A DNA stretch of 43,630 nucleotides from Shigella phage Buco. The DNA lies in sequence record MK562503, one strand, 5' to 3'. The notes under the pieces are model-generated. The model made no database searches, had not been told where the DNA came from, and was given only the letters and a program-made list of their open reading frames with translations. Below, piece after piece: positions 1 to 18,851 of this stretch. The translations under genes were made by a program, and so were the position numbers. How positions within the stretch are numbered: the stretch's first letter is position 1; each line of letters starts with the position of its first letter.

Positions 1-127
1 CCCGGGATATCCCGGGTTGACTTATCTGTTTTCGATTAAACACTAAGAAATAATCTCTTGTAGAATAGCTACTTAGAACCACTTGATAAAATACTTGAAA
101 AATAAGTTTGCAATCCCTGTAGTGGGA
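1..127. repeat. Direct terminal repeat, left copy; begins with a perfect 16-bp palindrome cccgggatatcccggg
   Basis: Bases 1..127 are identical to 43504..43630 (read directly from the sequence). The right copy is cut by the window edge, so the true repeat may be longer. Confidence 0.85.
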
Positions 128-136
128 ACCTAATAT
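108..136 (+). promoter_or_regulatory. Candidate host sigma70 promoter (TTGCAA, 17-nt spacer, TAATAT)
   Basis: -35-like hexamer 108..113 and -10-like hexamer 131..136 with 17-nt spacing, straddling the repeat boundary. Weak match, by eye only. Confidence 0.25.
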
Positions 137-265
137 GATTTCACCGGGCAGCAATACATCGCTGAACGGGGTAGTAAAGATAGCCACTGTAGTAACCCTC
201 CGGGGCGAAACAAGCTAGACGGGCCACACGGGAACAGTGGACGTGACCAATCATACGTTAACTGA

Positions 266-293
266 TTGGCAAGCTGGGTTATGGGACTAGTAT
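266..293 (+). promoter_or_regulatory. Candidate host sigma70 promoter (TTGGCA, 16-nt spacer, TAGTAT)
   Basis: Hexamers at 266..271 and 288..293; a 7-bp inverted repeat ccaatca/tgattgg (249..255 and 264..270) overlaps the -35 element. Confidence 0.2.
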
Positions 294-851
294 TTGAGTC
301 ACCGGGAGGCAAGAGGTTAGCCAAACGGGATAAGCAGTAAGACGTCGCTACGGAATGGTGACAGGTACACTCTACACTGATCAGCTAAGAGTAAATTGCG
401 GATTGAGAACCTTAACTCAGATAAGGGGCCGATTCCTACGGCACAAGTCACTACACATTTCGCGGTGACGTTAAGGCGCGAGGGCGATTGCGAAGTAAAG
501 CCAAAGAGTCAACGCTTAAAAATTTTCGTAATAAGTGTTGACAGCTACGAAGTGCTAGTCCAGACTGAATGGCAACAAAGCAGTACAGCGAGGTGAGGTG
601 AACCGCAGTACCCACGGGTACAATGACCGGGAATCCAAGATACTAGCTGGTAGTAGCAAGGCCGCCGGGCAGCACATAGTGCGACACGGTAGCGGGGAGG
701 CTGAGACTCTCTCCCCTGAAAGAATAGAGTCGAGGCCAGGACCACTGGCTACCCGGTTGTGCAGGGTGATACAAGGTTAGCTAAATAGTAAATTTAACAT
801 AGCTGGAGCTAACAAAGGCCAGCTAGATTAAATTAACTAGGAGAGCTTAAA

Positions 852-956
852 ATGCTGAGCTACGAGGAGTATTTCGACAACCTACCAGAAGGCGCTGAGG
901 CGCTGTCTGAGGCTGAGTACAACGAAGCAATAGGAGACAGCAATGGGGTACGCTAA
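852..956 (+). CDS. Small acidic hypothetical protein (34 aa)
   Basis: ATG preceded by aggagagc; below the ORF-track size cutoff; overlaps the 943..1164 ORF in another frame. Confidence 0.25.
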   Translation: MLSYEEYFDNLPEGAEALSEAEYNEAIGDSNGVR

Positions 957-1164
957 ACGCTTACAGAAGCGCTTTGACGGGCTTATAGACCTATCCGGCG
1001 GGGAGTTGCAGAAGCGCCGGGACAAGCTCAATGGCGCAGGGGTGCACCGGGGTAAGCAAAGCGCCACCTTCTCGACCTCTGTAAAGGGCAAGGAGAAGCG
1101 CAAAGGCAGCAGCAGACAGCCTATGGGTTACCCTAGCTGTAACAGCCAATTCAAGGGCAGATGA
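943..1164 (+). CDS. Hypothetical basic protein (73 aa)
   Basis: ORF-track entry; aggaga lies 7 nt upstream of the ATG; composition is low-complexity (K/R/G/S), so the coding status is doubtful. Confidence 0.25.
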   Translation: MGYAKRLQKRFDGLIDLSGGELQKRRDKLNGAGVHRGKQSATFSTSVKGKEKRKGSSRQPMGYPSCNSQFKGR

Positions 1165-1231
1165 CAGCCTACAGCGTCTCACGGGGCGCTGTGTGAAGTT
1201 ATTAATCCAATCCAAAACAAAGAGGTGTATC

Positions 1232-1789
1232 ATGGCTACTTTCAAACTCATTGCAGTAAATAGCCTTCAGAAGGCTCTTAAGGCTGCTGTAGACGCTAAG
1301 CGCAACGTCACTATCAGTGCGCTGTTCCACGGTCTGGTTAGCAGCAACGTGGCATTCGCTGCGGATATGCGTAAAGAGGATGCCGCTGATTTCGACGTCG
1401 TATTACGTGTTTTGCTCCCTATCCGCTACAACAAGGAAGCGCGTCAGTACCAGTTCGACCAGAAGAAAGCATTCGCCAGCGCTGAGAAGCTGGGGCTGAT
1501 GCTTGAAGCGGTGCGTGCTGAGTACCGCAACGCTGACAAGGCGGCGCGCGAGCAGATTGTGCAGGACTTCTATAGCCTGTGCATGAGCTACTACGACGAC
1601 AAGGCTACTGAGGCTAAGAGTAACTCTCTGGATGCTGATGCACTCCGTGATAGCGCCTTCAACCGCGTTAAGAGCAGCATCAAAAATGCCAAAGAGAAGG
1701 GCGTAACTGACGCCGCGCTGGTAGAATTGTTGATTGCTCAGGGCGTGGACGTCCGCGGCATCCTGAATGCTGAGAAAGCCACCGCATAA
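1232..1789 (+). CDS. Early hypothetical protein (185 aa)
   Basis: Internal ATG of ORF 1193..1789 preceded by agaggtg; first substantial ORF after the leader. Confidence 0.6.
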   Translation: MATFKLIAVNSLQKALKAAVDAKRNVTISALFHGLVSSNVAFAADMRKEDAADFDVVLRVLLPIRYNKEARQYQFDQKKAFASAEKLGLMLEAVRAEYRNADKAAREQIVQDFYSLCMSYYDDKATEAKSNSLDADALRDSAFNRVKSSIKNAKEKGVTDAALVELLIAQGVDVRGILNAEKATA

Positions 1790-1873
1790 GCGTGGTTTAG
1801 CGTGGTTTCTGTTAGCGCCTACATCGTGGGCGCTATAGGGCAATCATGCCGTATAGGTATTGAGGGTTTAATC

Positions 1874-2113
1874 ATGGTACAGACAATCACTATCATCGTG
1901 AAGTCGGCGCTGCTACTAATCAGCAGCAGCGTCTCCGAGCCTATCCCGTTCTGTACTATGGAAGTGCAGGGACAGCCGGGATATGAGTTGTTTGAAAACC
2001 CCGAGGGCGGCTGCAAGCAACTCGGGGCGACTTATAAACGTAACGCCGAAATTGCCTACCCGGATGCCGCGGTAGTGCTGGTGGTGGACGGTGTAAGCAA
2101 CCAGAATATGTGA
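1874..2113 (+). CDS. Early hypothetical protein (79 aa)
   Basis: Internal ATG of ORF 1802..2113 preceded by gaggg. Confidence 0.5.
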   Translation: MVQTITIIVKSALLLISSSVSEPIPFCTMEVQGQPGYELFENPEGGCKQLGATYKRNAEIAYPDAAVVLVVDGVSNQNM

Positions 2114-2120
2114 GGTTATT

Positions 2121-2300
2121 ATGTCAACCAAAACAATCGAAGTAGAACGCAATCGAGAGCAGCAGATATTCGAGCTGTTCTCGTTTCTGTTTAAACGTCC
2201 AGACCTCCCGGCTAATGACCCGGAAGGTGGGGATAACCAGCGGGTGCAAGCCCAGCAGTATCAGCACAGTGGGGCGTACGACGATGATAAAGTGGTTTAA
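2121..2300 (+). CDS. Early hypothetical protein (59 aa)
   Basis: ATG preceded by tgaggt; not in the track because it is 59 aa; reads MSTKTIEVERNREQQIFELF... Confidence 0.5.
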   Translation: MSTKTIEVERNREQQIFELFSFLFKRPDLPANDPEGGDNQRVQAQQYQHSGAYDDDKVV

Positions 2301-2439
2301 GAACAAGCTCGCTGCATGGGAGCTTAACGCCTTGCTCAAAGAGATTGAAGAGAATCTGGAGTATCAGGTGTGGTTGCAGCAGGAGCTAGAACGCGCCCAG
2401 TTCCGGCGCATTGAGCTGTTGCACCTGACCAAGAAGTAG
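2284..2439 (+). CDS. Small hypothetical helical protein (51 aa)
   Basis: Internal ATG of ORF 2215..2439; weak ribosome-binding site; overlaps the previous gene. Confidence 0.3.
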   Translation: MIKWFKNKLAAWELNALLKEIEENLEYQVWLQQELERAQFRRIELLHLTKK

Positions 2440-2446
2440 CATACTC

Positions 2447-2467
2447 AAGGGCATTCTGTGCCCTTTA
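2447..2467 (+). terminator. Stem-loop, possible early terminator
   Basis: aagggca / tgccctt 7-bp stem (2447..2453 and 2459..2465) with a 5-nt loop, followed by a T-containing tract. Confidence 0.35.
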
Positions 2468-2508
2468 TGAATGTTATTTGTTAGTTACTTACAGAGGAGA
2501 TAAGCACT

Positions 2509-2688
2509 ATGGCTCTAACAATCAACCCAGCTACGGTACTGGAGAGGCAGCAGCGGTCCAGTATTCAGGGGCTGGCAAGGGAGTACAGCGCTAAGGCAGC
2601 GCTGCGTACTATGTATGAACAACGGGCGGCCAAGCTGGGTATGACACTGGCCGGTTACTGTCAACGTTTTAATATCCGAGGTGTGTAA
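2509..2688 (+). CDS. Early hypothetical protein (59 aa)
   Basis: ATG preceded by gaggagat; stop overlaps the next start (TAATG). Confidence 0.5.
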   Translation: MALTINPATVLERQQRSSIQGLAREYSAKAALRTMYEQRAAKLGMTLAGYCQRFNIRGV

Positions 2689-2891
2689 TGGGTAATGTTT
2701 ACGCAGTAAAGGTTTACCGTAGCGATATAACCGGCAGTCTGCGGCGTGTACGGTTGAATGGCAGTGTTGAAAGATTCTCCCGTTTGAATAAATGCTGGGA
2801 ACCCTCGGCAGTTACAGCTACCGGCATGGCTAGGGAGTCTAGCGTCTTCAAGCTGATTGCTGTGCATGCGGTGTTCAAATGCCAAGCTTAA
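2688..2891 (+). CDS. Early hypothetical protein (67 aa)
   Basis: ORF-track entry; start coupled to the previous stop. Confidence 0.5.
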   Translation: MGNVYAVKVYRSDITGSLRRVRLNGSVERFSRLNKCWEPSAVTATGMARESSVFKLIAVHAVFKCQA

Positions 2892-3244
2892 CGCAAGACC
2901 TAACCCCGCTCACAGTATCGGAGGTAGCGGCGCTGTACTGGCGCATGCTTGAAACCGAGAGCAACGCTGGTTTAACCTGGGATAGCTACAGGAGAATTCC
3001 CGATGAACTCAAACCGCTCTGTCCTTGTGAGCGCCGACTTCGCCACGTTAGAAGAGAGGATGTTGTCTTGCTTGACACCCTCAGAACCTATTCTCCGGAG
3101 TGCGCAGCGCAGTCTCTGGCAAAGCTCCAGTTTCCCATCGTTGCAGAACTTACCACGAGAGGGTACGCCGGAGCATTCAAGGCTTTCAGCAGCGTTCTCA
3201 GACAGTACTACCGGGAGGCGTGCGCAATCCATTATTATGGATGA
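2879..3244 (+). CDS. Early hypothetical protein (121 aa)
   Basis: ORF-track entry; its translation looks more protein-like than the overlapping N-terminal extension of ORF 3003..4961. Confidence 0.55.
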   Translation: MPSLTQDLTPLTVSEVAALYWRMLETESNAGLTWDSYRRIPDELKPLCPCERRLRHVRREDVVLLDTLRTYSPECAAQSLAKLQFPIVAELTTRGYAGAFKAFSSVLRQYYREACAIHYYG

Positions 3245-4961
3245 GCCAGCGTATATCCTCCCCGGGCGAACTATAATCAAAGAGATACTCAACAACCACA
3301 AACAAGAAGAGGTGAAACCAATGCAACTTGAAATTAATGCTAACGCAATCTCTATGTCACTGGTTACCGGTGGCTATCACGATGGGAATGTTTACTACTT
3401 AACTCACGAACTCCCCCTTGAGGAGCTGGCTGATGAGCTGGGCAAGTGGATTAAATCTGAGCACACGCCCGAAGAGGTTATCCTGCGTATGCATCGCACC
3501 TTCTGGTACAGCTACATCGGCCCGGAAATTCTCTTGAGCAGAGACAACCATCCTCGCGGCAGCACAATAGGGCTGCACTGGGAAGATCTAACCGGGGGCA
3601 CGGCCTCAGCAATTCTTACCAAGCTAGGCTGGAAATCAGCTGGTTGGGATCAAGAGATCACTGCTACTAGTCCAGCCGGGCTGGTGCAGGCTGCTCAATC
3701 TCTGCTGCTGGGACATTTTAATCTGGTGCTGCATAAGGATGCGAGTGCTTTTGCTAATGCATTCATTGACGACTACAAGGAGGTAGTCCAAAAAACCGCC
3801 GGGGATATGGGGGTCTACTACAACACAAGCACTGGTCTCTACTCAGTAAAGAAGGTAGATTTAGTTAAGTTGCTTATGAACTTGAACGGGATCTTTGCAA
3901 ACCGGGGTGCAGTGCTGGTTGGCGAAGGCTTCAAAGATGGGAACCCTATGGCTATCCTTGCCCAACCAGTGTTTCGTGATGGGCAGTTGCAGGGCGTGAA
4001 GCTGCAAGAGCAGCGCATGGGGCGCTTCTTGACCAGCATCTTCGGCAACGCGAAAGACTTCCGCCCAGCCATTGATGACCTCAAGGTATACAACAAGAAG
4101 CCCCAGAGCTACCTTTGTGTAACAGAGGAGGAGTGGTATAATGCTTACGAGCAAGGCCCGGGCAGCTGCATGACCGATTATAAGTTTGACTGCTCCCCGG
4201 TGCGCGTCTACGCTACTACATCGCACGGGCTTCCTGATAACGGCCTGCGCCTGTGTATCAACTACACAGGGGAGTTGTTTGGTAAGGGATTCAGGGTGCT
4301 TAATCGCGCCATTGTCAATATTAACACCAAGGAATACGTCCGGGCATACGGTGAAAACGGTGATGCGGTCATGCGCAGCCTGGGTTATGAGCGCGATACT
4401 GGCGCAACCGACGGTGCTATCCTTGCCAAGATTCCGCATCCCCGTAACAACGGTGCGTATCTGATGCCGTATCTGGACGGGTCTGATGATGAAGTTGATG
4501 ACAACGACGATCACTGGGTCATCACATGCAGCGGGGATTATGGCGCTACGGATGCCAACGGATATATCTATGCGGGTGGCCGCTGCTGTGATTGCTGTGA
4601 TGAAAGAGTAGATGAGGATTCACTGACTGAGACAGCAGGTGGGGATGAGGTGTGTGGGGATTGCCTTGCGGAGAACTATGTGGTTCCCTTAGACAGGGAG
4701 GAATACTACCACCGGTGTGATTGCACCCATTCAGAATATGAGGGTGGTTGGGTATATGATAGTGACGTAGTGGATTGCCCAGTGTATGGCTGTGTATATT
4801 ATGGTAATACCATCTTTGCCCAGGGCCAGCGTGTACATGAAGACGCCACTGAGTGGTGCGAGGCGTTAGGTGACCACATCCTGACCGAAGAGGCGGCGGC
4901 CAATCTGGACGAACCTTACTTAGGCAGGGATGAAGAAGATACAGAAGAGGAAGCAGCATAA
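3237..4961 (+). CDS. Large early protein with a Cys-rich, acidic C-terminal region; function unknown
   Basis: In-frame ATG at 3237 overlaps the stop of the previous gene; an alternative start at 3321 has a strong site (gaggtga). C-terminal part carries clustered cysteines (CCDCC, CGDC, CDC, CPVYGC) and an acidic tail. Confidence 0.65.
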   Translation: MDEPAYILPGRTIIKEILNNHKQEEVKPMQLEINANAISMSLVTGGYHDGNVYYLTHELPLEELADELGKWIKSEHTPEEVILRMHRTFWYSYIGPEILLSRDNHPRGSTIGLHWEDLTGGTASAILTKLGWKSAGWDQEITATSPAGLVQAAQSLLLGHFNLVLHKDASAFANAFIDDYKEVVQKTAGDMGVYYNTSTGLYSVKKVDLVKLLMNLNGIFANRGAVLVGEGFKDGNPMAILAQPVFRDGQLQGVKLQEQRMGRFLTSIFGNAKDFRPAIDDLKVYNKKPQSYLCVTEEEWYNAYEQGPGSCMTDYKFDCSPVRVYATTSHGLPDNGLRLCINYTGELFGKGFRVLNRAIVNINTKEYVRAYGENGDAVMRSLGYERDTGATDGAILAKIPHPRNNGAYLMPYLDGSDDEVDDNDDHWVITCSGDYGATDANGYIYAGGRCCDCCDERVDEDSLTETAGGDEVCGDCLAENYVVPLDREEYYHRCDCTHSEYEGGWVYDSDVVDCPVYGCVYYGNTIFAQGQRVHEDATEWCEALGDHILTEEAAANLDEPYLGRDEEDTEEEAA

Positions 4962-5971
4962 TGTTAAACATCAGATTACTCAAGCAGTTACTGGAAATGC
5001 ACCGCCCGAGCTACGACTCGAATGCGTGGTTGCACGAGTTCCTGGACCCGCGTTTGCCAGCGGGTGCACAGAAGGTGCAGGACGATTACGGGAACGTGTT
5101 CGTTCTGGTGGGGGATAGCGAGCAAAGCGACGTGGCCTTTACCTGCCACACCGACACAGTGGCGCGCCGCAGTAGCCAGCCCCCGAAGGTGAAGATGTCT
5201 ACGTCCGGTATCATGTACGTCGGCAACCCTGACGTAGCTGACTGCCTCGGGGCTGATGATGCAGCGGGTATTTACCTGATGCTGGAGATGCTGGAGCACG
5301 GCGTGCATGGCCGTTACTGTTTCTTCCGGGATGAAGAAGTAGGCTGTGAAGGCAGTGGCTGGTCCGCAGCTGACAAGACCGGGTTCTGGACCGGGGTCAA
5401 AGCAATGATTAGTTTCGACCGCCGGGGTGATGGCATCATCACGAGCCAGCGCTTCCAGGAGTGCTGCTCCCACACCTTCGCACTGGAACTGGCCGAGCGC
5501 CTGGGCCGTACACCTGCACATCTTCAATCCGGTATCTACACGGACTCAGCGGAATTCATGGGTATCATCCCTGAGTGCACCAACATCGGGGTGGGTTATA
5601 AGTACGAGCACACCCCGGACGAGATTCTGGACATCGACATCCTGAGCTCGTTGCTGGAGCGCGTACTGGCTCCTGGTACATTCGCGAACCTGCCGATTGT
5701 ACGTGACCCGGCCCAGTCCCCTGCCAACCGTATCACTTCGTTGAGTGACTGGATGCAAGCAGCTCCGGTAGACGAGGACCCACTGCTGCTGGCCCGCTTC
5801 CGGGAATTGTCACAGCTGGGTATGCCGGAACTGGCACAGTGGGTAGTATCAAACCCGGAGGCGGCAGCGCAGTACATTGCAATTTACTCCGACTACGGAT
5901 TCAAATCAGAGCTGATTGAAGTAGGCACCAAGGTTGTGAAGGACTGGGGCGGCTTTGACAGCATGTTCTAA
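4961..5971 (+). CDS. Zn-dependent hydrolase-fold protein (M20/M28/M42 peptidase-like)
   Basis: Ordered motifs CHTDTV (about 5146), GADDAAG (about 5250), RDEEVG (about 5326) and a later His match the metal-ligand order of co-catalytic zinc peptidases. Start overlaps the upstream stop (TAATG). Confidence 0.6.
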   Translation: MLNIRLLKQLLEMHRPSYDSNAWLHEFLDPRLPAGAQKVQDDYGNVFVLVGDSEQSDVAFTCHTDTVARRSSQPPKVKMSTSGIMYVGNPDVADCLGADDAAGIYLMLEMLEHGVHGRYCFFRDEEVGCEGSGWSAADKTGFWTGVKAMISFDRRGDGIITSQRFQECCSHTFALELAERLGRTPAHLQSGIYTDSAEFMGIIPECTNIGVGYKYEHTPDEILDIDILSSLLERVLAPGTFANLPIVRDPAQSPANRITSLSDWMQAAPVDEDPLLLARFRELSQLGMPELAQWVVSNPEAAAQYIAIYSDYGFKSELIEVGTKVVKDWGGFDSMF

Positions 5972-6003
5972 GCAGTAACGAGCGACAATTCAACCATAAA
6001 CAA

Positions 6004-6024
6004 AATGAGGTTACACGGTATGGC
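6004..6024 (+). promoter_or_regulatory. Phage-promoter-like motif P1 (aatgagGTTACACGGTATgg)
   Basis: 12 of 14 match to the motif repeated at 21378, 42762 and 13102; overlaps the start of the next ORF, so its function here is uncertain. Confidence 0.35.
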
Positions 6025-6655
6025 AAAGGCAATCACTGTTAAGGTTACTGACAAGACTGATTTTGAAGCACACACTGCGTTGAAGCTCGGAGATATCTTG
6101 GTATTCAATGAGGATGGTGTTTATAAATATCCGAATGGTACCAACGGTACTTACAACGACCCCTGGCTTGAGAAGATGCTGAGCAACGGCTCATTCGCGG
6201 AGGTCCTGAGTGAGCGTAAATTCAGAGATACAGAAGCCCCTGAGTGGGCTACTGCCGTCGGGTGCTTCCAGGGCGGGTGGTACTGGGAGGAGGACATCAA
6301 CCAACGTAATGGGGCGCGCTTCCAGAACATAACAGGGACGAAGGCGTACGAGTACGACAACCACACTGTCAAAGGTTGGGACCAGTACAAAGTCCTGCCG
6401 GCGTTCGTGGAGGAGCAGCTACCGCCGGCACCGACTGCTGTCATGTACCTGAATGACACACCTACTGCCCACAGAGAACTTAAGTTACAAGGGGCCAAGG
6501 GATACCCCGGGCACTTGGTACTGAACGTAGGGGATGGTAAGGGTAACTCTAAGTCAATCGTGCTCAGTCCTGAATCAGCACTGCAACTGGCCCATGACCT
6601 GAATCGCATGGGTATGGCCGGTAAACGTAAACTAAAGGAGCAAGCTAATGGCTAA
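6020..6655 (+). CDS. Early hypothetical protein (211 aa)
   Basis: Second in-frame ATG of ORF 6005..6655, with gagg upstream. Confidence 0.55.
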   Translation: MAKAITVKVTDKTDFEAHTALKLGDILVFNEDGVYKYPNGTNGTYNDPWLEKMLSNGSFAEVLSERKFRDTEAPEWATAVGCFQGGWYWEEDINQRNGARFQNITGTKAYEYDNHTVKGWDQYKVLPAFVEEQLPPAPTAVMYLNDTPTAHRELKLQGAKGYPGHLVLNVGDGKGNSKSIVLSPESALQLAHDLNRMGMAGKRKLKEQANG

Positions 6656-6857
6656 GATTGAATATACAAGCGCACACCCTACTGTACAGGTAGGTATCCC
6701 GTTTACTTGGGGAATCAACGCTTACTGGTACATCCAAAGCTCCAATGGGTATTTTCTGTGTTTAAATGATGGTAAAGACGTAACGCAATCAATCGATCCG
6801 TACGAAATATTAAGTGAGCGTGGCTTCCGCTACGCTACGAGCATGGAGCTTAAGTAA
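6648..6857 (+). CDS. Hypothetical protein (69 aa)
   Basis: ORF-track entry; ggagc upstream. Confidence 0.5.
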   Translation: MAKIEYTSAHPTVQVGIPFTWGINAYWYIQSSNGYFLCLNDGKDVTQSIDPYEILSERGFRYATSMELK

Positions 6858-7720
6858 TGGCAGACGCCCCGTGGTTAGTAGCGTGCAAGCGCCTTGCCGT
6901 GGGGCAGACGGCCCGGTTCCGGTGCTGCGGCAGGACCCCTGCCGCGGTACTGTACAACAAGCCAGACAGCTGGGGCATGTTCTGCCACCGCTGCAAGAGC
7001 AGCCCGTACGAGAGGAAACAATACGTATCCCTGGTACAGCCCGAGATACTCCCGCGGGTGCTCCCTGCACCTGCACATCTAATCCGCGTTAGCCAGGCGA
7101 CCCCGGAGACGCGGGCACACGTATACAGTTTCATGGTCAGCAAAGGCTTGATGCCGGATATGCTGGAGGATGCATTATGGTCGGAAGAATTGAAGCGCCT
7201 GGTATTTCAAACCGGGCAAGGGACTTATCTAGCCAGGGCGATGTACGAGCATCAGCAGCCGAAGTGGTTGATGCTGGGCGGGGCGCAGAGCTATGCAATA
7301 GCACCTGCCCGGGTTGGAATTGCACAGACGAATGCACACACAACGCATTCAGCCCAAACCGCTGTCGCGGCACCTGCCAAGACACTGGATGCAGCTGCGG
7401 ACGCCGGATTGGTGGTGCTGACCGAGGATTACCTCAGCGCCCGGAAGGTGCAATGGACCAGCGAAAGGTACTCACCACAGGCTACGGTGTTAGCCGTGGC
7501 CTTACTTGGGACGAGGTTACAGCTCGCGTTAAAGAGCAAACTAGTGCAGGCAAACAAGCCCGTATTGTTGATGCTAGACGGGGATGCAGCCGGGGATGCC
7601 GGGACTGCAAGAATAAGTAAGGAGCTGCGCCCGTTCGTGCCGGTGCGGTCATATCAACTCCCTGGGCTAGACCCCAAGGATATGCAGGTACACCAGATTC
7701 TGGAGGGGTTAAATGTTTAA
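6857..7720 (+). CDS. DNA primase (zinc-binding plus TOPRIM-like)
   Basis: N-terminal Cys cluster CCGRTP...CHRC and acidic LMLDGDAAGDAG motif; sits immediately upstream of the helicase. Confidence 0.7.
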   Translation: MADAPWLVACKRLAVGQTARFRCCGRTPAAVLYNKPDSWGMFCHRCKSSPYERKQYVSLVQPEILPRVLPAPAHLIRVSQATPETRAHVYSFMVSKGLMPDMLEDALWSEELKRLVFQTGQGTYLARAMYEHQQPKWLMLGGAQSYAIAPARVGIAQTNAHTTHSAQTAVAAPAKTLDAAADAGLVVLTEDYLSARKVQWTSERYSPQATVLAVALLGTRLQLALKSKLVQANKPVLLMLDGDAAGDAGTARISKELRPFVPVRSYQLPGLDPKDMQVHQILEGLNV

Positions 7721-7910
7721 GAAAGAACCGGGCCTTACATTGGTCGGTCGTAAACTGTATCGTGGGGTGTTCGGGAATTTATATACGGTTAATAGTTTTG
7801 GTGTAGTTTGCGTTCAGACAGAGGGCTCAGAAAAGTGGGAGCCCTCCCACTACAGCTTAAAGGGTTTTAATGATGCTGTAGAAAAAGGGTATCTCAAAGA
7901 GGAGAACTAA
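7713..7910 (+). CDS. Hypothetical protein (65 aa)
   Basis: ORF-track entry between primase and helicase. Confidence 0.45.
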   Translation: MFKKEPGLTLVGRKLYRGVFGNLYTVNSFGVVCVQTEGSEKWEPSHYSLKGFNDAVEKGYLKEEN

Positions 7911-9194
7911 TTGGACTATATCGTAGTTAAGGCCATGTGTACCCGGAAGATATGGCACAGGCTGCGAGAGCAGATACCATCCAGTATGCTGGCACCAGAC
8001 ACGGTGTCTCTGCTGGGCTGGGTGGACCTGTACTGGTCAACGTACCAGGAGCATGCTGAGGTACACGCTGACGCATTCGAGAGCATGCTGAACCTCCGGG
8101 CCGGGGCAGCGCCGAAGGAGCAGATGGATATCCTGCGGCACATGTTCCGAACGGTGCAGCAGGTGCCAGATGATTCAGTGGTGGGTGTAGTACGCACCCT
8201 GAATGAGCTGGCCTACAGTGGGGAGGTGGCGGCGCTAACCCGTAGCTATCAGGACGGGGAGGAAGTAGACTTCATTGCGGAGATGAAGCGGCTTAACCGG
8301 AAGTACGGTGATGGCGCAGCAGTGCAAGACTCCTTGATGGAGTGGGAGTCTGGTTCAGTAGATGATATACTGGCGCAGACAGATGAATCAGGCGGGTTAA
8401 AGCTGAACGTGTTCGGCCAAACCCAGAGGAACATACGAGGTGCTAGAGGTGGTGACTGTATCGCTGTGGCTGCTCCTGTGGATGCTGGTAAAACTAGTCT
8501 CCTCGCTAGTATTGTTGTGGGTTTTGCTGAGCAGATGCAGCAACAGCCCGAGGTCTACGGAAGCCGCCCAATACTATGGCTGGTCAACGAATCCCTTGCG
8601 GCTCGCACTGTGCCGCGTATTTACCAAGCTGCAACGCACTGGACTCTACAGGAGATTCGAGAGCAGCATCAGCACGGTAAGTTTGCCCCGGCCTACCTTA
8701 ACAAGGTGGGTGCGTATGACCGTATTCGCGTTAAGAATGCGCACAGTCTCACTATGGCACAGATTGCAACCCTGATTGAGGAGATGAACCCTGCGGTGCT
8801 GGTCATCGACATGGTTGCAAACGTCCGGGGAGGAACCATGGAGACTGAGCACCAGAACCTGGAGGCGAAGTGGCAGGAGCTGCGCGTGCTTGGCTGTGAG
8901 CACGACTGCGTAATGCTCGGCACCATGCAGTTGTCTGCGGAGGGGTATGACATGCTGTACCCACCGCTGACCGCTATGAAGCAAAGCAAGATTGGCGTGC
9001 AGGGTGCGCTGGACTTAGCCCTGATGATGGGCCGGTTAGACCCGAGCACTAGGCCAGAGATGGTGAACGTACGCGGCATCAGTACACCTAAGAACAAGAT
9101 GGGCTTGTCTGGGTGCGAGTCGTACCTGCAATTCCAAGTGGACTTTCAGGGTGGGCGTTGTAAATTTGACGAAGGGGTAAGTGCTCATGGCTAA
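7911..9194 (+). CDS. Replicative DNA helicase (DnaB/T7 gp4 helicase-like)
   Basis: Walker A-like AAPVDAGKTS and Walker B-like LVIDMV; TTG start at 7911 after aaagaggag (alternative ATG at 7935). Confidence 0.75.
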   Translation: MDYIVVKAMCTRKIWHRLREQIPSSMLAPDTVSLLGWVDLYWSTYQEHAEVHADAFESMLNLRAGAAPKEQMDILRHMFRTVQQVPDDSVVGVVRTLNELAYSGEVAALTRSYQDGEEVDFIAEMKRLNRKYGDGAAVQDSLMEWESGSVDDILAQTDESGGLKLNVFGQTQRNIRGARGGDCIAVAAPVDAGKTSLLASIVVGFAEQMQQQPEVYGSRPILWLVNESLAARTVPRIYQAATHWTLQEIREQHQHGKFAPAYLNKVGAYDRIRVKNAHSLTMAQIATLIEEMNPAVLVIDMVANVRGGTMETEHQNLEAKWQELRVLGCEHDCVMLGTMQLSAEGYDMLYPPLTAMKQSKIGVQGALDLALMMGRLDPSTRPEMVNVRGISTPKNKMGLSGCESYLQFQVDFQGGRCKFDEGVSAHG

Positions 9195-9512
9195 CAAATT
9201 TAAAGTAGGTGACTTCGTGGTACGTACTGCTGACAACTGGGGGGTTGGTGCGCAAAGGCGACGTGTGGCAGGTCAGTGAGGTGGGGGGTATTCGGTAGCG
9301 GTATCAAACTCAAGGGTGATGCAGAGTGTACGTACGACCCGGCTAATTTCAGGTTGGCATATGACGGGGAACTATGCTCGGTCGTCGGTATGAGCTGGGA
9401 CTATGCGGAAGCACAGCGCCTACAGGACATTGCTAAGGCCGCAGTCAAAGCGTATAACGATTACGTCGGGCGTAAACCTGAAACGGTGTTCTTGAAGCTG
9501 GCTGATTACTAG
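9187..9512 (+). pseudogene. Frame-disrupted small gene (about 107 aa if two G6 tracts are read as G5)
   Basis: ATG at 9187 reads MANKFKVGDFVVRTADNWG, then the frame changes at GGGGGG 9239..9244 and again at GGGGGG 9283..9288. All three frames are protein-like in succession and the last runs to 9512. Confidence 0.45.
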
Positions 9513-9568
9513 GTACTTTTACAGGGCATCTCAGGGTGCCCTGTGTAGGTACATAGTGCGGAGGTTGT

Positions 9569-9727
9569 ATGTTACGAGCAAAAGATTTAACCATCGAGGA
9601 TGCCCAGGTTATTGGGTGGTACAGGGGCAAGCCCAGCTACATAGACCTGGCTAGGCTGACAGCATTTCACCTGGAGAGCTCGCACCTGATTGCTCTCCGG
9701 GCCATCGACAAAGCGCGGAGGGCTTGA
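9569..9727 (+). CDS. Hypothetical protein (52 aa)
   Basis: ATG preceded by gcggaggt; stop overlaps the start of the HNH gene. Confidence 0.45.
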   Translation: MLRAKDLTIEDAQVIGWYRGKPSYIDLARLTAFHLESSHLIALRAIDKARRA

Positions 9728-10161
9728 TGGAAGATTGCATTGACCACGGCCAATTGGGCGGGGTTGGCGGGTACGGAAGAGTGCGCATGGGTGGCCGGGT
9801 TACTGGTGCCCACCGCAGAGCTTATTGTGAGGCTAACGGTGTTTCGTTGGACGATATAAAGGGGAAGGTTGTGCGCCACCTTTGCGACAACCCACGGTGC
9901 ATTAATGCGGAGCATCTCGCCTTAGGCACCGCAAGCGACAACATGCAAGACCGCAACCGCGGAGTTAATAATCTGCTTGGAGAAAGGAACCCATCAGCCA
10001 AGTTAACAGCCTCGGATGTTGTGGCGATTAGGGCGGCATATAAATCAGGAGAGACTCAAGTATCTATAGCGCGCCGCCTGGGTTTACGTCAGGGCTACAT
10101 CTCAAAAATTATAACGGGGAGAATCTGGAATGAGCAGCAGCATTCTAATCACAGATTATGA
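9727..10161 (+). CDS. Free-standing HNH homing endonuclease with C-terminal helix-turn-helix
   Basis: HNH signature RHLCDNPRCINAEHLALGTASDNMQD, then a DNA-binding-like helical region (SAKLTASDVVAIRAAYKSGETQVSIARRLG). Confidence 0.75.
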   Translation: MEDCIDHGQLGGVGGYGRVRMGGRVTGAHRRAYCEANGVSLDDIKGKVVRHLCDNPRCINAEHLALGTASDNMQDRNRGVNNLLGERNPSAKLTASDVVAIRAAYKSGETQVSIARRLGLRQGYISKIITGRIWNEQQHSNHRL

Positions 10162-12505
10162 AACAGAAAATCATCCATACTATGGAGGGGTAGCTTCCCC
10201 ATACTGTCCTGACAATTACATCGTAGAATCCGCTTGGCGTATTGACCGCACAAATGATGATGGTACGGTCAACGTCGGGGACGTTGGGAGCGTTCGCTAC
10301 AATAGTCGTGAACAGTTCCTCGCTGCACCACCCTCTGAGTGGCTACCGATACCAAGCGATTGCTGGTTAATAGTGGCCCATAACGCGGCTTACGAAATCA
10401 GTTGGTTTTTATCCTTTGCCCGTAAAGAATTTGAGGACTTCTTAAAGAGGGGTGGGCGTGTCTTTGACACAATGCACGGAGAGTACATTGCCACGGACTT
10501 CCAGAGTATGTATCCGAGCTTGGATGAGACGGCTCCTAAGTATGGTGGTACGCACAAGGTAGACGGGGTAAAGATTCTGTGGGAACAGGGTGTGCTCACC
10601 TCGCAGATTGACCCGATGCTATTGCATGACTACCTGGTGAACGGGGATATCCCGAACACCGCGCTGTGCTTCTACGGCCAGTGTGCTATCTTTGCTGAGC
10701 GCGGGCAGATGCAAATGGTCTGGGAGCGTATGGACGCTGTGCTGGCCTGGGCCTACTGTGAGTTCTTCGGATTGTATGTGAACATGCCGGTAGCCCGGGC
10801 GAACCAGGCGGAGCAGGAGCAGCGCATTCAGGAGCTGAAAGAGGAGCTGGGTAAGTACCTGCCGGAACTGCCGGAGACGTTCGAGTTCAACTGGGGTAGT
10901 AACTTCCATATGTCAGCGCTGGTATACGGCGGACCTATCCGGTACAAGCGCAAGGTCCCGTATGACCCGCCGCAGTATGTAAAAGCCGACTATTATAAGC
11001 TCAATAACGGAGAGCTTATAGAGGTAGATGATTGGGACATAGAGGCGTTGGATACTCGGCTAGTGCAGGAGGGCCTGTACCGCGAGGTTTATAGGGCAGG
11101 TAAGAACAAGGGTCGGCCTAAAGTCTTCCGCGCCGACACCGAGGAGGAGAAGCTTAAGTGGGACGACGCTATCTACACCTTCCCGGGCATCGTCAAGATA
11201 GCAGAGTTGCCAGAGCACATCCGGGAGAAGTACAGCGACCGTGGCGAGTTCAGAGGGGCCCAGACACTACCCGACGGCAGTCCGATATACAGTACCAGCG
11301 GGGACGCCATGAACGGCCTGGCGGCCCAGGGGCACGCCTTCGCTAAGTTGGTGAACGAGCTGGCCGGGTTAGAGAAAGACACCGGCACCTACTACCTACG
11401 CACGGAGTACAACAAAGATGGCTCAGTCAAGAAAGTGTCCGGAATGCTCCAGTACGTTATCCCTCAGTCAGGAGACGGGAGCGGCATTATCCATCACAGA
11501 CTCAACACTTGCAGCACTGTCACTGGACGTCTCTCTGCTTCTAACCCAAATCTCCAGAACCTCCCACGAGACGGCACGAGTCGAGTTAAACAAATGTTTA
11601 CTAGCCGTTTCGGCGACGAGGGGCGGATTACAGAAGTCGACTACTCGGCTCTTGAAGTTGTTATGTCCTGTGTGCACACCGGGGACCTCAAGCTCCTAGG
11701 TCTGCTGCTGGATGGTACGGACATGCACTGTTACCGGTTAGCCTTTAAGGAGGGCAAGACCTATGATGAAGTGTACCACCTCTGTCACTCGGATGAGGTT
11801 CCGGTTGAGGTCCATAAACTTTGGAAAGCCATGCGTACCGAGATTAAACCTCCTAGCTTTGCTGCTCAGTACGGCGCTACGGCTAAAGGTATCGCATTCG
11901 CTACCGGATGTACCGTGGAGTATGCCCAGTCATTCCTTGATAATGAAGCCGCACTATTCCCTACCACCATTGGCTTTCGTGATGTAGTCCGGGAGGAAGT
12001 AGAGCGGACCGGGGCAGAGGGGCCAATGTACCGAGAACAGGGTGATGATGGGCAGTGGAGACTGTACCGCATCGGGCACTGGCGTAGCCCCGCCGGTACA
12101 CGCTACAGCTTCCGTCAGAAGCTGCAATGGAAAGCCCCGCCGGGAGGTGGCCGCAAGGTTCAGGTAATGGACTACAAGGGCACAGAGATTGCAAACTACT
12201 GGTGCCAGGGGGAGGCGTTCTTCCTGATGCTGGTGGCCGCCGGGCAGGTTATGCGGGCAATGGTGCAGCGCGACTGGTTCGATGGGCAGGTGTGTCTGAT
12301 TACGAACGTGCACGATGCGTTGTATCTGGACAGCGCCAATCCGGAGGTAGGCCGGGAAGCGAGCCTGTTGGTTAAGCAGTGTATGGAGGATGCGCCTAAA
12401 CGTATCCATGCCCTGTGGCCGGACTACGGCATCATTGGGCAGGTCCCGTTCCCGGCGGAAGCTGAGATGGGTTTGAGCATGTACAGTAAGGAGAAGATTC
12501 AATGA
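10130..12505 (+). CDS. Family A DNA polymerase with N-terminal 3'-5' exonuclease domain
   Basis: 791 aa; exo motif ILITDYETE, then DYSALEVV, RTEIKPPSFAAQYG and VHDALYLD polymerase motifs; ggggaga upstream. Confidence 0.9.
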   Translation: MSSSILITDYETENHPYYGGVASPYCPDNYIVESAWRIDRTNDDGTVNVGDVGSVRYNSREQFLAAPPSEWLPIPSDCWLIVAHNAAYEISWFLSFARKEFEDFLKRGGRVFDTMHGEYIATDFQSMYPSLDETAPKYGGTHKVDGVKILWEQGVLTSQIDPMLLHDYLVNGDIPNTALCFYGQCAIFAERGQMQMVWERMDAVLAWAYCEFFGLYVNMPVARANQAEQEQRIQELKEELGKYLPELPETFEFNWGSNFHMSALVYGGPIRYKRKVPYDPPQYVKADYYKLNNGELIEVDDWDIEALDTRLVQEGLYREVYRAGKNKGRPKVFRADTEEEKLKWDDAIYTFPGIVKIAELPEHIREKYSDRGEFRGAQTLPDGSPIYSTSGDAMNGLAAQGHAFAKLVNELAGLEKDTGTYYLRTEYNKDGSVKKVSGMLQYVIPQSGDGSGIIHHRLNTCSTVTGRLSASNPNLQNLPRDGTSRVKQMFTSRFGDEGRITEVDYSALEVVMSCVHTGDLKLLGLLLDGTDMHCYRLAFKEGKTYDEVYHLCHSDEVPVEVHKLWKAMRTEIKPPSFAAQYGATAKGIAFATGCTVEYAQSFLDNEAALFPTTIGFRDVVREEVERTGAEGPMYREQGDDGQWRLYRIGHWRSPAGTRYSFRQKLQWKAPPGGGRKVQVMDYKGTEIANYWCQGEAFFLMLVAAGQVMRAMVQRDWFDGQVCLITNVHDALYLDSANPEVGREASLLVKQCMEDAPKRIHALWPDYGIIGQVPFPAEAEMGLSMYSKEKIQ

Positions 12506-12714
12506 GCAATAAATCAAACGGTATTGGCCTGGCTAGTGTACTCGGCGTAGTGTTCGTGACCCTGAAACTGTGCGGGGTTATCAACTGGTCCTGGGTGTGG
12601 GTGCTTGCACCCTGGTGGCTCCCCCTGGTATTAGCTGTATCGCTCATGGCTAGCCTGGGCGCTGTATGGGCTGTACTGTACAGCATAAAACATCTAATGA
12701 GGAATACTAAGTGA
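12502..12714 (+). CDS. Small membrane protein (two predicted transmembrane helices)
   Basis: 70 aa, strongly hydrophobic (VFVTLKLCGVINWSWVWVLAPWWLPLVLAVSL...). Confidence 0.5.
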   Translation: MSNKSNGIGLASVLGVVFVTLKLCGVINWSWVWVLAPWWLPLVLAVSLMASLGAVWAVLYSIKHLMRNTK

Positions 12715-12917
12715 GCGAGATTAAAGTGGGTGACAAAGTTAAGATAATCCGGCACAAAGACTATCCTAATGAAATTTGGGACAAGGGTCACTTTGCTATC
12801 GGTAGCGTCCATACGGTTAAAGGCATAGACCTACACGACCACCTAGGAGTGTATCTCCGGGATGAAGAGGGGGATGATTATCTGATTCTCTGGGCAGAGA
12901 TTGAGAAGGTACAGTGA
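12711..12917 (+). CDS. Small hypothetical protein (68 aa)
   Basis: GTG start after gagga; sequence MSEIKVGDKVKIIRHKDYP... Confidence 0.5.
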   Translation: MSEIKVGDKVKIIRHKDYPNEIWDKGHFAIGSVHTVKGIDLHDHLGVYLRDEEGDDYLILWAEIEKVQ

Positions 12918-12977
12918 GTGTAGGTTTACCCCGGGCGGCACAGGGTGTTAGGGTATCACACAAAACGAGGTGGGTCA

Positions 12978-13073
12978 ATGAATTCTTTTAAAGTATTTGC
13001 ATTGCGTGTCCAAGTTTACATCCTGGCCGCAGTTTCTATCATTATCTTCATGGCACTGTTGACATACGCTTGA
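12978..13073 (+). CDS. Small hydrophobic peptide (31 aa, single transmembrane segment)
   Basis: ATG preceded by acgaggtg; MNSFKVFALRVQVYILAAVSIIIFMALLTYA; below the track cutoff. Confidence 0.35.
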   Translation: MNSFKVFALRVQVYILAAVSIIIFMALLTYA

Positions 13074-13095
13074 ATCTGTGAAACAGGCCCTAATA

Positions 13096-13115
13096 GAATT
13101 CCACGGTATAGTACG
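13096..13115 (+). promoter_or_regulatory. Phage-promoter-like motif P2 (ttcCACGGTATAGtacgac)
   Basis: Shares the CACGGTATAG core (13102..13111) with P1, P3 and P4; followed by aggaga at 13120..13125 and a TTG start at 13132. Confidence 0.5.
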
Positions 13116-13131
13116 ACACAGGAGAACTACC

Positions 13132-14118
13132 TTGGCAAAGACCAGTCTAATTAAGTTGTGGACCAAAGAGCAGCACCAGGCAATCCTGGGTCGCTATTTA
13201 AACAATGAACGGGCAGCAGAAGAGTACAACAGCACCTACGTTGTACACGGCTGCGGCAACCCGGTATCCAGGCAGCTGGTGCGCTACTGGCGCAGCATCT
13301 TCATCGACAATGGCGGCAGCAAAGCGAAGGCTAATCATGGCTTACAAGAAGCGCGCAAACTCATTCAGCCAAGTCCCACTGATGATATTGGAGCTACTCT
13401 GGTTCCTGATGTTTGTCATCGGATTCTCGTCGTTGGGGATTTGCATGCTCCTTATACCCACGCTGATGCTCTTGAGTTTCTAAAGTCCGTCCGGGATGAA
13501 TACTGCCCGGACATGGTTATTCAGGTGGGTGACGAAACGGACGGACACGCAATCAGCTTCCATGACTCCGACCCGAACCTGGACAGCGCCGGGGTGGAGC
13601 TGGAGAAGGCTAAGGTAATTCTGGAGGACGTGCATGCGCTCTTCCCGAATCTACTCGTGTGCGACTCAAATCACGGGAGTCTTGTGTATCGTCGCGCCAA
13701 GGCTCACGGTCTACCGGTACAATTCATCAAGAAGTACCGGGATATTCTGTTTCCTGAGCACGGGGCACCGTCATGGAGTTGGGCGGATGCGTGGGTGCTC
13801 AACACGCCTCTTGGTCCGGTACGCTTCCAGCACCAAGTGTCAGGCGACTTTATGCTTAATGCGTCGCATGAGCGGACCAGTCTGGTTCTTGGTCACGAGC
13901 ACGGGCGATTCGAGGTACAGTACGCCGCTTCCAGCACCGCGCTGTATTTTGGCGCTTACGCAGGGTGCCTTATTGACCGCAAATCGCTTGCATTCGCATA
14001 CGGTAAGTTAACCCGTAAGAAACCAATCCTGGGCGTGATGGTTATCACTGAGGGTTGTCCACAATTAATTCCCATGCTACTCGACGATTCCGGTAGGTGG
14101 GTTGGGAGGGCTAAGTAA
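13132..14118 (+). CDS. Calcineurin-like metallophosphoesterase (possible DNA repair exonuclease or phosphatase)
   Basis: Motifs GDLHAPY, GDETDGH, CDSNHGS, GHEHG. No in-frame ATG precedes the first motif, so the TTG at 13132 is taken as start (alternative GTG at 13078). Confidence 0.7.
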   Translation: MAKTSLIKLWTKEQHQAILGRYLNNERAAEEYNSTYVVHGCGNPVSRQLVRYWRSIFIDNGGSKAKANHGLQEARKLIQPSPTDDIGATLVPDVCHRILVVGDLHAPYTHADALEFLKSVRDEYCPDMVIQVGDETDGHAISFHDSDPNLDSAGVELEKAKVILEDVHALFPNLLVCDSNHGSLVYRRAKAHGLPVQFIKKYRDILFPEHGAPSWSWADAWVLNTPLGPVRFQHQVSGDFMLNASHERTSLVLGHEHGRFEVQYAASSTALYFGAYAGCLIDRKSLAFAYGKLTRKKPILGVMVITEGCPQLIPMLLDDSGRWVGRAK

Positions 14119-14309
14119 TGGCGACGTATCAAGTTAAAGAAGAGTACCGCGAGGTGGTAACGGGTATCCGCACCTACACCGTGGAGGCCAACTCTACGGA
14201 GGAGGCCTGGAATAAGGTGGACAGCGGGGATGTAACACCGGACTCGGAGACCAAAGAGTACAAGGATTCTGACTACAGTATGATTAGCGCATTCATAGTA
14301 GTGCCCTAA
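14118..14309 (+). CDS. Hypothetical acidic protein (63 aa)
   Basis: ORF-track entry; start overlaps the upstream stop (TAATG). Confidence 0.5.
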   Translation: MATYQVKEEYREVVTGIRTYTVEANSTEEAWNKVDSGDVTPDSETKEYKDSDYSMISAFIVVP

Positions 14310-14368
14310 TCCGTTGCGCTCTGCATCTGCACGTAAATTTTATTTAATCTAAACGAGGACGTAATTAT

Positions 14369-15208: not shown

Positions 15209-15279
15209 ACTCCTGACGACTACTGGTCTGATGATTGCCCCTTCTAATTAAAGGGCCCCACGGGGTCCCTGGAGATTAT

Positions 15280-15534
15280 ATGAACCTGATTAAGATTTTA
15301 GTTAAGCTGCTGGACAAAGCCTACCATGCGGAAGCCCGTAAACATCAGAGGGCAGCAGATAAGCACGCTGCCGATTCCCAACGCCACCACCAGGCGGCGG
15401 AGCAACTGCGTGCACAAGCAGCTGCCGCTGTAGGTGCCGGGGTTTCCAGCGCGCGTAGCTCTGAGCTCGCGTATAATCGGGCCAAGAAGATCCAGGCCAA
15501 AGCCGCCCAAGTATCCCAGTTCTTCACTGTGTAA
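15280..15534 (+). CDS. Hypothetical helical basic protein (84 aa)
   Basis: Internal ATG of ORF 15235..15534 preceded by ggaga. Confidence 0.5.
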   Translation: MNLIKILVKLLDKAYHAEARKHQRAADKHAADSQRHHQAAEQLRAQAAAAVGAGVSSARSSELAYNRAKKIQAKAAQVSQFFTV

Positions 15535-15543
15535 GGAGTAATA

Positions 15544-18821: not shown

Positions 18822-18826
18822 CTATT

Positions 18827-18835: not shown

Positions 18836-18851
18836 GGGAGAATATGCGCCT

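Follow-up and report, generated by a model that had tools for sequence, protein, structure and literature searches.

The gene-free left end of Shigella phage Buco is an early control region with a conserved pseudoknotted leader RNA

The window analyzed here is the complete 43,630-bp genome of the podovirus Shigella phage Buco (MK562503; UViG_2974508359 in IMG/VR), and our subject is the leader at positions 128 to 851, between the left terminal repeat and the first gene. The large open reading frames (ORFs) of this genome all lie on the plus strand, and its gene for a single-subunit RNA polymerase (RNAP), at 18834-21332, is 76% identical at the nucleotide level to that of Cronobacter phage Peggy. 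The gene order, with the RNAP gene ~19 kb from the left end, is of the phiKMV/KP34 type. A BLAST search of the GenBank phage collection found no close relative of Buco; the best matches to the leader were ~80% identical and extended over parts of it only, and Peggy was the closest relative used for leader comparison. We find that 128-851 is a non-coding early control region of a KP34/phiKMV-like podovirus, without any gene, and that it contains an undescribed, widely conserved pseudoknotted leader RNA, here called block B, which has excellent covariation support. We consider it very likely that promoters plus a structured leader RNA are the right description of this region. It is bounded by the following features.

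1..127: left direct terminal repeat (127 bp, 100% identical to 43504-43630), which holds the -35 element and the A/T-rich upstream tract of candidate promoter P1
839-843 (AGGAG) and 852 (ATG), plus strand: start of the first gene, with a 34-amino-acid (aa) product of PHROG 2061

The first-pass annotation had seen no convincing ORF between the left repeat and the first gene with a ribosome-binding site (RBS), and had called the composition of the short ORFs there poor; both statements were borne out. The longest ORFs in 128-851 encode 54-66 aa, overlap one another, and lie on both strands, and none of the five largest matched a PHROG or Pfam family. The ORFs to the right, at 852-956, 943-1164, and 1232-1789, match PHROGs 2061, 6352, and 5277, respectively. 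When the two largest leader ORFs were compared with Peggy, substitutions were spread evenly over the codon positions (9/12/9 and 8/12/13), and a 1-nucleotide (nt) indel disrupts both frames. No other 724-nt stretch of the genome is as rich in purines as the leader (60% A+G), and 78-nt windows with more C than G make up 2% of it versus 26% in genes. Its GC content is 49.5%, compared with 51-59% in most 1-kb windows of the genome. Conserved structured-RNA modules account for ~60% of its length; BLAST brought out two non-coding blocks that are retained in phages that have diverged elsewhere.

The most informative of these modules is block B, an H-type pseudoknot followed by two hairpins.

694..767, plus strand: block B, 74 nt
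694-699/711-716, plus strand: pseudoknot helix S1
700-704, plus strand: loop L1, GCUGA
705-710/726-731, plus strand: pseudoknot helix S2, interleaved with S1
717-725, plus strand: A-rich loop L3
735-739/745-749, plus strand: hairpin S3, after GAG
751-754/764-767, plus strand: hairpin S4, with loop GGUUGUGCA

No base separates the 5' strand of S2 from the 3' strand of S1. RNA-structure covariation across relatives, which the first-pass annotation had suggested as a check, was found in block B as well as in two further modules, blocks A and C, described below. The block B alignment comprised 27 distinct sequences, or 28 once Pseudomonas phages were included. In it, 96% of the cells were paired, compared with 35-53% when the partners were slid, and 16-17 of the 21 pairs were changed on both sides. 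Pairing in helix S2 was 100%; each of its six pairs covaries, and a single position can show as many as four pair types. G.U pairs outnumbered A.C pairs by 8:0 in block B, meaning that wobbles occur only in the plus-strand sense, and by 26 to 2 in block C; because of this asymmetry, we conclude that both blocks act as plus-strand RNA. There is hardly any variation in four unpaired segments: GCUGA, A-rich loop 3, GA(G), and the loop of S4, GGU.GUGCA. Block B therefore shows aptamer-like traits, namely a conserved fold, covariation, and invariant unpaired bases.

A covariance model of block B detects one copy in Buco, at 89 bits, with the next best site at 12 bits. Searches against Rfam 15 gave no match in 1-3000 at E<=1 and only chance matches (<=19 bits) in 670-860 at E<=10, nor was there a relevant match in the leaders of relatives, including that of phage LUZ19. 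We found no description of block B in the literature. Fremin et al. (2023) reported >10,000 unnamed candidate structured RNAs from a large phage survey (PMC10690425); Klebsiella, Autographiviridae, and an early-leader pseudoknot are all absent from that text. As a covarying intergenic motif in IMG/VR contigs, block B is similar to those candidates and may be among them. Two ideas about its internal workings were rejected: a sigma-dependent pause element with a -10-like hexamer, as in putL, because TAGAGT is not conserved in relatives (judged by eye), and a kissing interaction between the S3 and S4 loops, because the S3 loop is not conserved.

Block B is spread widely among phages. A stringent pattern matched 38 IMG/VR contigs, all of them 41.7-47.8 kb long or fragments of such, and 26 metagenome contigs were matched. 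Block C and/or block B is present in at least 255 GenBank phages, of which 133 have both; the carriers are mostly Klebsiella phages of Drulisvirus, and the region is usually unannotated. Block B occurs in Drulisvirus, Kotilavirus, Phikmvvirus, and a Vibrio phage, and the hosts of its carriers are Klebsiella, Pectobacterium, Cronobacter, E. coli/Shigella, Vibrio, and Pseudomonas. Divergent copies of the same architecture were detected with the covariance model in LUZ19 (1400-1496), PJNP013, PollyC/SeaP2, and Vibrio phage G1; in the last of these, block B lies 34 nt downstream of a predicted sigma70 start (TTGACA, 17 nt, TACTAT). It was not found at the left ends of T7 and three Kayfunavirus phages. 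The block B pattern had no match in 100,044 bacterial and archaeal genomes, and BLAST of the motif found none in 5,426 E. coli genomes; host mimicry by block B was rejected on these grounds.

What lies downstream of block B is variable. In Buco, PPWS2, and contig L138, an additional small ORF separates block B from the PHROG-6352 gene; the next gene is 145-190 nt away in leaders of the phiHAO78-1 type; and a PHROG-6352 homologue was not detected in Vibrio phage G1 or in contigs L145, L158, L209, and L245. The 3' flank itself differs between subgroups, with no terminator found 3' of the motif. Block B is thus independent of the identity of the next gene and of its distance.

Upstream of block B, we recognize three candidate promoters and their associated repeats.

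109..137, plus strand: P1, candidate sigma70 promoter, TTGCAA (109-114), 17 nt, TAATAT (132-137); 8/12, below the scan threshold
141..154, plus strand: box after P1, TCACCGGGCAGCAA, initially transcribed; repeat family D1
247..269: inverted repeat CCAATCA-N9-TGATTGG, arms 247-253/263-269 (7 bp, 9-nt loop), overlapping the P2 -35 element
266..293, plus strand: P2, candidate sigma70 promoter, TTGGCA, 16 nt, TAGTAT; 9/12 in the promoter scan
299..312, plus strand: box after P2, TCACCGGGAGGCAA, initially transcribed; repeat family D1
515..566, plus strand: P3, A/T-rich tract 515-537, TTGACA 538-543, 17 nt, CAGACT 561-566

Comparison with related phages supports P1, P2, and P3 as rightward host-type promoters, in agreement with the first-pass annotation, which expected host-recognised early promoters here. 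P3 is the best-supported promoter of the leader. Among 38 distinct relatives with enough upstream sequence, 36 have a perfect TTGACA and a 17-nt spacer 101-190 nt upstream of block B, most commonly at ~126 nt, followed by -10 hexamers such as TAACTT, TAGATT, and TAAAGT. The A/T-rich tract upstream of P3 is also present in Peggy, where the equivalent of CAGACT is TAGATT; in the Buco hexamer, A at -11 and T at -7 are retained. P3 is also the positional homologue of the mapped LUZ19 promoter P005, and because the transcription start site (TSS) of P005 falls 7 nt after its -10 element, we predict that transcription from P3 starts at ~572-574. Block B, which each genome has once, is located ~120 nt downstream of the P3-type start. 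The perfect TTGACA at 538-543 had been noticed earlier and is real, but the view that it lacks a -10 element was too pessimistic, given CAGACT at the 17-nt spacing, the conservation in relatives, and the example of LUZ19 P005.

The two sites originally listed at 108-136 and 266-293 both exist, the first being more exactly at 109-137. In promoter prediction, also proposed earlier as a check, P2 scored and P1 fell below the threshold; the support for both comes from conservation. Buco 83-114 is homologous to Peggy ~887-934, and Buco 284-328 is 91% identical to Peggy 948-992. Both 83-137 and 284-328 are homologous to a single Peggy promoter segment (TTGATAAAATA..TTGAAAA..TTGCA, then TAGTAT, then ttgagTCACCGGGAGGCAAG), and P1 and P2 therefore look like a duplicated promoter module. 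A TCACCGGG(A/C)(G/A)GCA box directly after the -10 element is common to the P1 and P2 segments, Peggy, and KP34, in which the box TCACCGGGAGGCA follows TATAGT. The copies of repeat family D1 in Buco are at 141-154, 299-312, and 662-675. P1 straddles the repeat boundary (127/128), with its -35 element in the terminal repeat and its -10 element in unique DNA; the copy of the repeat at the right end consequently has a -35 element without a -10 element unless it is joined in a concatemer. The inverted repeat near P2, formerly placed at 249-270, does exist, with its true arms at 247-253/263-269. It is probably incidental: we estimate that ~0.4 inverted repeats of 7 bp are expected by chance in 724 nt, and this one is not conserved in Peggy.

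The remaining structured elements of the leader flank P3 and block B.

332..504, plus strand: block A, a row of hairpins H1-H5
344-350/356-362, plus strand: H1, by eye, with GGA in its loop
369-373/388-392, plus strand: H2, covariation-supported
403-407/416-420, plus strand: H3, by eye
428-431/439-442, plus strand: H4, by eye
447-451/465-469, plus strand: H5, covariation-supported
587..648, plus strand: block C, an irregular hairpin between P3 and block B
587-593/642-648, ~603-605/628-630, and 608-612/617-621: outer, middle (by eye), and apical stems of block C
786..839, plus strand: long irregular hairpin with 21-nt arms and a central 2x2 internal loop, ending at the Shine-Dalgarno sequence

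Block A is 83-85% identical to its counterparts in E. coli phage phiHAO78-1 and Klebsiella phage Hope, and its core is also found in the Kayfunavirus phages ASO2B, GA2A, and ST38 and in Pectobacterium phage PPWS1, where it starts directly after an annotated or obvious sigma70 promoter. Hairpins H2 and H5 were 98.6% paired in 7 sequences, with 4 doubly changed pairs, versus 20-47% when slid. Because a pattern scan of IMG/VR matched Buco itself and nothing else, these 7 sequences are the basis of block A. In block C, RNAalifold found compensatory changes in 10 of 15 predicted pairs among 19 sequences, located in the outer stem and the apical hairpin, and the internal loops UUGCGG(U/G)G, (R)AUGA, and AAUCCUAGAUA are conserved; judged by eye, RAUGA opposite YA could plausibly be read as a k-turn, a reading that we do not put forward as a claim. 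The long hairpin at 786-839 (inverted repeat I1, 86% complementary) has counterparts in all 11 relatives that were folded. Each counterpart forms 20-25 bp around a central internal loop, is located 3' of block B and 5' of the first RBS, and stops a few bases short of the Shine-Dalgarno sequence, with z values of -3.2 to -5.6; the upper-stem sequences differ, but the pairing is kept. By analogy with T7, we propose that 786-839 is an RNase III-type processing site.

Several smaller features of the leaders were also observed. The pentamer CCGGG is over-represented in the Buco leader (5 observed versus 0.7 expected), as is GCAGTA (3 versus 0.3). The longer form GCAGTA(A)G precedes blocks A and C, at 334-342 and 581-588; in several phages it is seen again at a distance of 10-40 nt downstream of predicted early starts (contig L009, 966-985; contig L005, ~500-512). 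Leader lengths range from 0.7 kb in Buco to ~2.2 kb in phiHAO78-1, and an HNH endonuclease gene (532-1047) lies inside the otherwise non-coding leader of PPWS2, from which we conclude that this region tolerates insertions. The genome ends (1-16 and 43504-43519) open with a perfect 16-nt palindrome, CCCGGGATATCCCGGG, which is SmaI-EcoRV-SmaI-like.

The overall plan of the Buco leader is reminiscent of the left end of T7, where host promoters A1-A3 are at 498, 626, and 750, phiOL is at 405, a boxA is at 814-825, and gene 0.3 begins at 925. RNase III cuts the T7 transcript at R0.3, before gene 0.3. In both phages, a gene-free ~0.85 kb follows the terminal repeat, with three tandem rightward host promoters (candidates at ~137, 293, and 566 in Buco), a purine-rich untranslated leader, and a long hairpin just before the first gene (852 in Buco, 925 in T7). 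The promoter cassettes are visibly homologous across subfamilies. Exchange between subfamilies is further illustrated by the metagenomic KP34-like contig L248, in which a homologue of the T7 A1-A2 interval lies upstream of block C; a Vibrio phage G1 promoter (L035, 2427-2480) resembles T7 A3 (GGTAC.ATGTACCACAT). The two left ends also differ. T7 has a perfect boxA and phiOL, neither of which is present in the Buco leader, whereas T7 and Kayfunavirus are without block B, and RNase III cleavage in Buco is proposed by analogy only.

The leaders of T7, Peggy, PPWS2, Vibrio phage G1, and three further contigs contain a perfect 12-nt match to the E. coli rrn-type boxA (GCUCUUUAACAA), in each case oriented in the direction of transcription. 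These sites (GCTCTTTAACAA) lie at Peggy 1101-1112, at T7 814-825, in PPWS2, in Vibrio phage G1 (~600 nt upstream of block B), and in contigs L209, L236, and L259. No boxA within 2 mismatches was found in Buco 1-851, and Drulisvirus leaders have none. The idea that boxA and block B are mutually exclusive alternatives was rejected, as Peggy, PPWS2, and Vibrio phage G1 have both.

A second point of comparison is LUZ19, in which sigma70 TSSs have been mapped by ONT-cappable-seq at 950, 1029, 1182, and 1284, upstream of gp0.1 (Putzeys et al. 2024, PMC10914365). P005 (TSS 1284; TTGACA, 17 nt, TAACAT) is strongly active in E. coli and likewise in P. aeruginosa; the non-coding RNA (ncRNA) candidates of that study lie elsewhere in the genome, a short leader RNA was not called, and the motif was not described (PMC10914365). 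LUZ19 has the same genome layout as Buco, with the RNAP gene far from the left end and a promoter cluster, P002-P006, and its block B homologue (1400-1496, 33.5 bits) starts 125 nt downstream of the P005 TSS. The differences are that there is no BLAST-detectable DNA similarity, such that the covariance model alone finds the motif, and that in the LUZ19 block B both S1 and L3 are shorter and the S4 loop contains an additional hairpin. A further 5' end in LUZ19 (region 1505-1561), "P006" at 1561, lacks a promoter motif, shows no activity in E. coli, and lies 55 nt before gp0.1, just 3' of a long hairpin that follows the block B homologue. This end might be a processing product or a factor-dependent start.

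Our best explanation, to which we assign a probability of roughly 55% as a whole, is that 128-851 is an early control region with a structured leader, within which block B acts in cis via a conserved host component. Host RNAP would start at P1-P3 once the leading DNA end is inside the cell and would produce a long, untranslated, purine-rich, C-poor, and heavily folded leader offering few Rho loading sites. The terminal hairpin would be cut by RNase III, as at T7 R0.3, which would free the first mRNA from the leader. Block B, and probably block C with it, would fold co-transcriptionally and bind a host component that is conserved across gamma-proteobacteria; we suspect a conserved host partner because the unpaired bases of blocks B and C are invariant across phage hosts whereas the early proteins are not. 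The preferred partner would be the transcribing RNAP itself, with a put-like anti-pausing or antitermination effect.

The putL and putR elements of HK022 are ~70-nt folded RNAs located just downstream of early promoters that act in cis on RNAP; they form two stem-loops in a V shape with some triplex-type tertiary structure (PMC9378689). Block B is comparable in its 74-nt size, its sense-strand location 35-130 nt from a start, and an A-rich loop positioned for a helix groove. We favor put-like action in cis because host polymerase is needed for the ~19 kb that precede the phage RNAP gene, because related leaders carry a perfect rrn boxA, which is a known antitermination signal, and because put RNAs sit in the same kind of position. 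By this analogy, a specific RNAP-modifying mechanism of block B can be put forward tentatively, at well below even odds. More doubtful still is the broader proposal that blocks B and C are a new class of nascent-RNA regulator in virulent phiKMV/KP34-type phages, bound to RNAP or to another universal machine.

Several observations weigh against this explanation. Unlike put, which comes from a temperate lambdoid phage, block B is a pseudoknot plus two hairpins, no sequence relationship between the two was found, and binding of RNAP by block B is hypothetical. Since block B and boxA coexist in several phages, block B is not simply a boxA substitute. Plus-strand terminator-like sites of the early region are weak and do not exceed chance in number, with 11 found in 1-20000 versus 13.5 expected. 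In LUZ19, the longest P005 reads end by 1815 whereas P002 reads reach 3586 (PMC10914365), and these read lengths give no sign of special processivity, although processing could explain them. The promoters themselves are not outstanding by consensus: the scan of 1-3000 found 2 promoter-like sites versus 2.4 +/- 1.6 expected, the scores of P1 and P2 do not exceed chance, and the -10 element of P3 in Buco is poor (3/6). Finally, a gene for the small basic PHROG-6352 protein lies 60-390 nt 3' of block B in most members, which fits a translational operator as well.

Such an operator is the alternative that survives best, although we consider it unlikely. Here, the first early genes would be controlled by block B and the hairpin that follows it, acting as a translational operator or riboswitch. 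The ligand, a phage protein such as the PHROG-6352 product or else a small molecule, would bind the pseudoknot and thereby alter how accessible the downstream RBS is. The motif is indeed a pseudoknot in a 5' untranslated region with many invariant unpaired bases, the PHROG-6352 gene is within 60-390 nt of it in ~60 loci, and a Drulisvirus stem, CAAGGUUAA/UUAACUUUG, ends 2-5 nt before the Shine-Dalgarno sequence. There is also a precedent in T4 gene 32, with a 5' pseudoknot operator in a phage mRNA leader that is conserved among relatives and absent from Rfam (PMC10690425). What the two have in common is an H-type pseudoknot on the 5' side of the mRNA leader. However, the gene 32 pseudoknot nucleates binding of the gene's own product along an unstructured A/U-rich tract, whereas the tract from block B to the RBS in Buco is a stable hairpin, and the downstream genes vary among block B phages. 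Neither the distance from the motif to the RBS (63 to >400 nt) nor the intervening sequence is conserved, and the inserted ORFs and the five genomes without a detectable PHROG-6352 homologue, noted above, also speak against an operator. In the predicted folds, the Shine-Dalgarno sequence is unsequestered, and a riboswitch acting by termination would find no terminator 3' of the motif.

Next in rank, and also improbable, is release of the leader by cleavage and its build-up as a stable ncRNA that works in trans, as a decoy or sponge that ties up a host protein, for example a ribonuclease, an RNA chaperone, or an effector of host defence. Such an RNA would be made in large amounts from the strongest early promoters. 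The processing-like hairpin directly after block B in all relatives folded would suit this role, modules are exchanged among subfamilies like independent cassettes, and the invariance of the unpaired bases across very different hosts points to a conserved host target. Against this, block B is present in a single copy, without the tandem array or family of short pseudoknotted units seen in ToxI-like type III antitoxin mimics, there is no similarity to any Rfam small RNA or antitoxin family, and the long-read ncRNA candidates of LUZ19 do not include a short leader RNA. The GGA in the H1 loop of block A raised the idea of a CsrA/RsmA sponge, which we rejected: H1 alone has a loop GGA, and neither GGA (12 versus 16 expected) nor ANGGA (1 versus 5 expected) is enriched in the leader.

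We regard it as very unlikely that the conserved blocks are instead DNA-level signals, such as an origin of replication, a site for packaging or concatemer processing, or a signal for genome entry. The region does adjoin the terminal repeat, next to which T7 has packaging and secondary-origin functions, and it is somewhat A+T-richer than the genome. But compensatory changes keep the helices, including the interleaved pseudoknot, which duplex DNA would not need; G.U pairs occur in the plus-strand sense only; and in every case the blocks have a sigma70 promoter upstream and are oriented as transcribed. The first-pass annotation's mention of a possible origin likewise found no backing, as the leader contains no iterons and no phage-RNAP promoter, and its GC content is only modestly below the genome mean.

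The phage-RNAP promoter in question is GTTACACGGTATAG, for which the leader has no match within 3 mismatches. Five plus-strand copies of a GTTACACGGTATAG-type repeat, at 6010, 13098, 21378, 32875, and 42762, are probably phage-RNAP promoters; two of these copies are upstream of the RNAP gene and one is near the right end. At <=3 mismatches there are 10 matches versus 3.0 expected in Buco. Directly 5' of S1, GACACGGTAGC (683-693) has an 8-nt core, ACACGGTA, in common with this putative promoter, the rest of which is missing; GACACGGTAGC is not conserved in Drulisvirus, and the likeness is probably a coincidence. The idea that the S4 loop (CCACGGUNGUG) is connected with the promoter of the phage RNAP (ACACGGTATAG) was also rejected, because the loop is invariant in phages with differing promoters (KP34 and LUZ19).

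Least probable of all, and hardly credible, is that one or more short ORFs (598-780 on the plus strand or 545-745 on the minus strand, for example) encode a small protein whose coding constraint explains the conservation: they are open in Buco, and the GenBank records of some relatives have "hypothetical proteins" annotated on this DNA, but besides the absence of PHROG and Pfam matches, the even substitutions, and the frame-breaking indel, the motif core varies in length (70-74 nt) and has a plus-frame stop in 17 of 38 variants, and no RBS precedes these ORFs. Short "hypothetical proteins", some on the minus strand, are annotated over blocks A, B, or C in many GenBank records (Hope 1442-1980; PP889457; PP889500) and are probably spurious gene calls on structured RNA.

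One early protein accompanies block B throughout. The ~185-aa product of 1232-1789 (PHROG 5277) is encoded 3' of block B in all members, including the most divergent. Its homologues in Vibrio phage G1 (L035) and in contigs L145, L158, and L245 have in common a V.V.A.A.L.H....GD-like segment. The Buco protein had no Pfam or PDB match, and PDB sequence searches with two conserved early proteins gave no match.

Taken together, a gene-free early promoter region is ordinary for phages of the T7 supergroup, but the conserved pseudoknot inside it is not. Few sequences in the early regions of these phages, which otherwise evolve fast, are as conserved as block B, and most of the carriers of block C and/or block B infect Klebsiella, a host targeted in phage therapy. 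In practical terms, the block B motif (model R1) marks the true left end and the direction of early transcription in permuted or reversed assemblies. The invariance of its unpaired bases across such different hosts implies a specific partner conserved in gamma-proteobacteria, and the identity of that partner would show how these phages secure their first minutes in the cell with host RNAP alone and would also yield a small RNA element with which transcription or translation in bacteria could be controlled. If blocks B and C do act as a nascent-RNA regulator, early transcription would be resistant to pausing and termination and transcription-driven genome entry would be faster, and phages from Pseudomonas to Klebsiella and Vibrio would possess a functional counterpart of put RNA with an unrelated fold.

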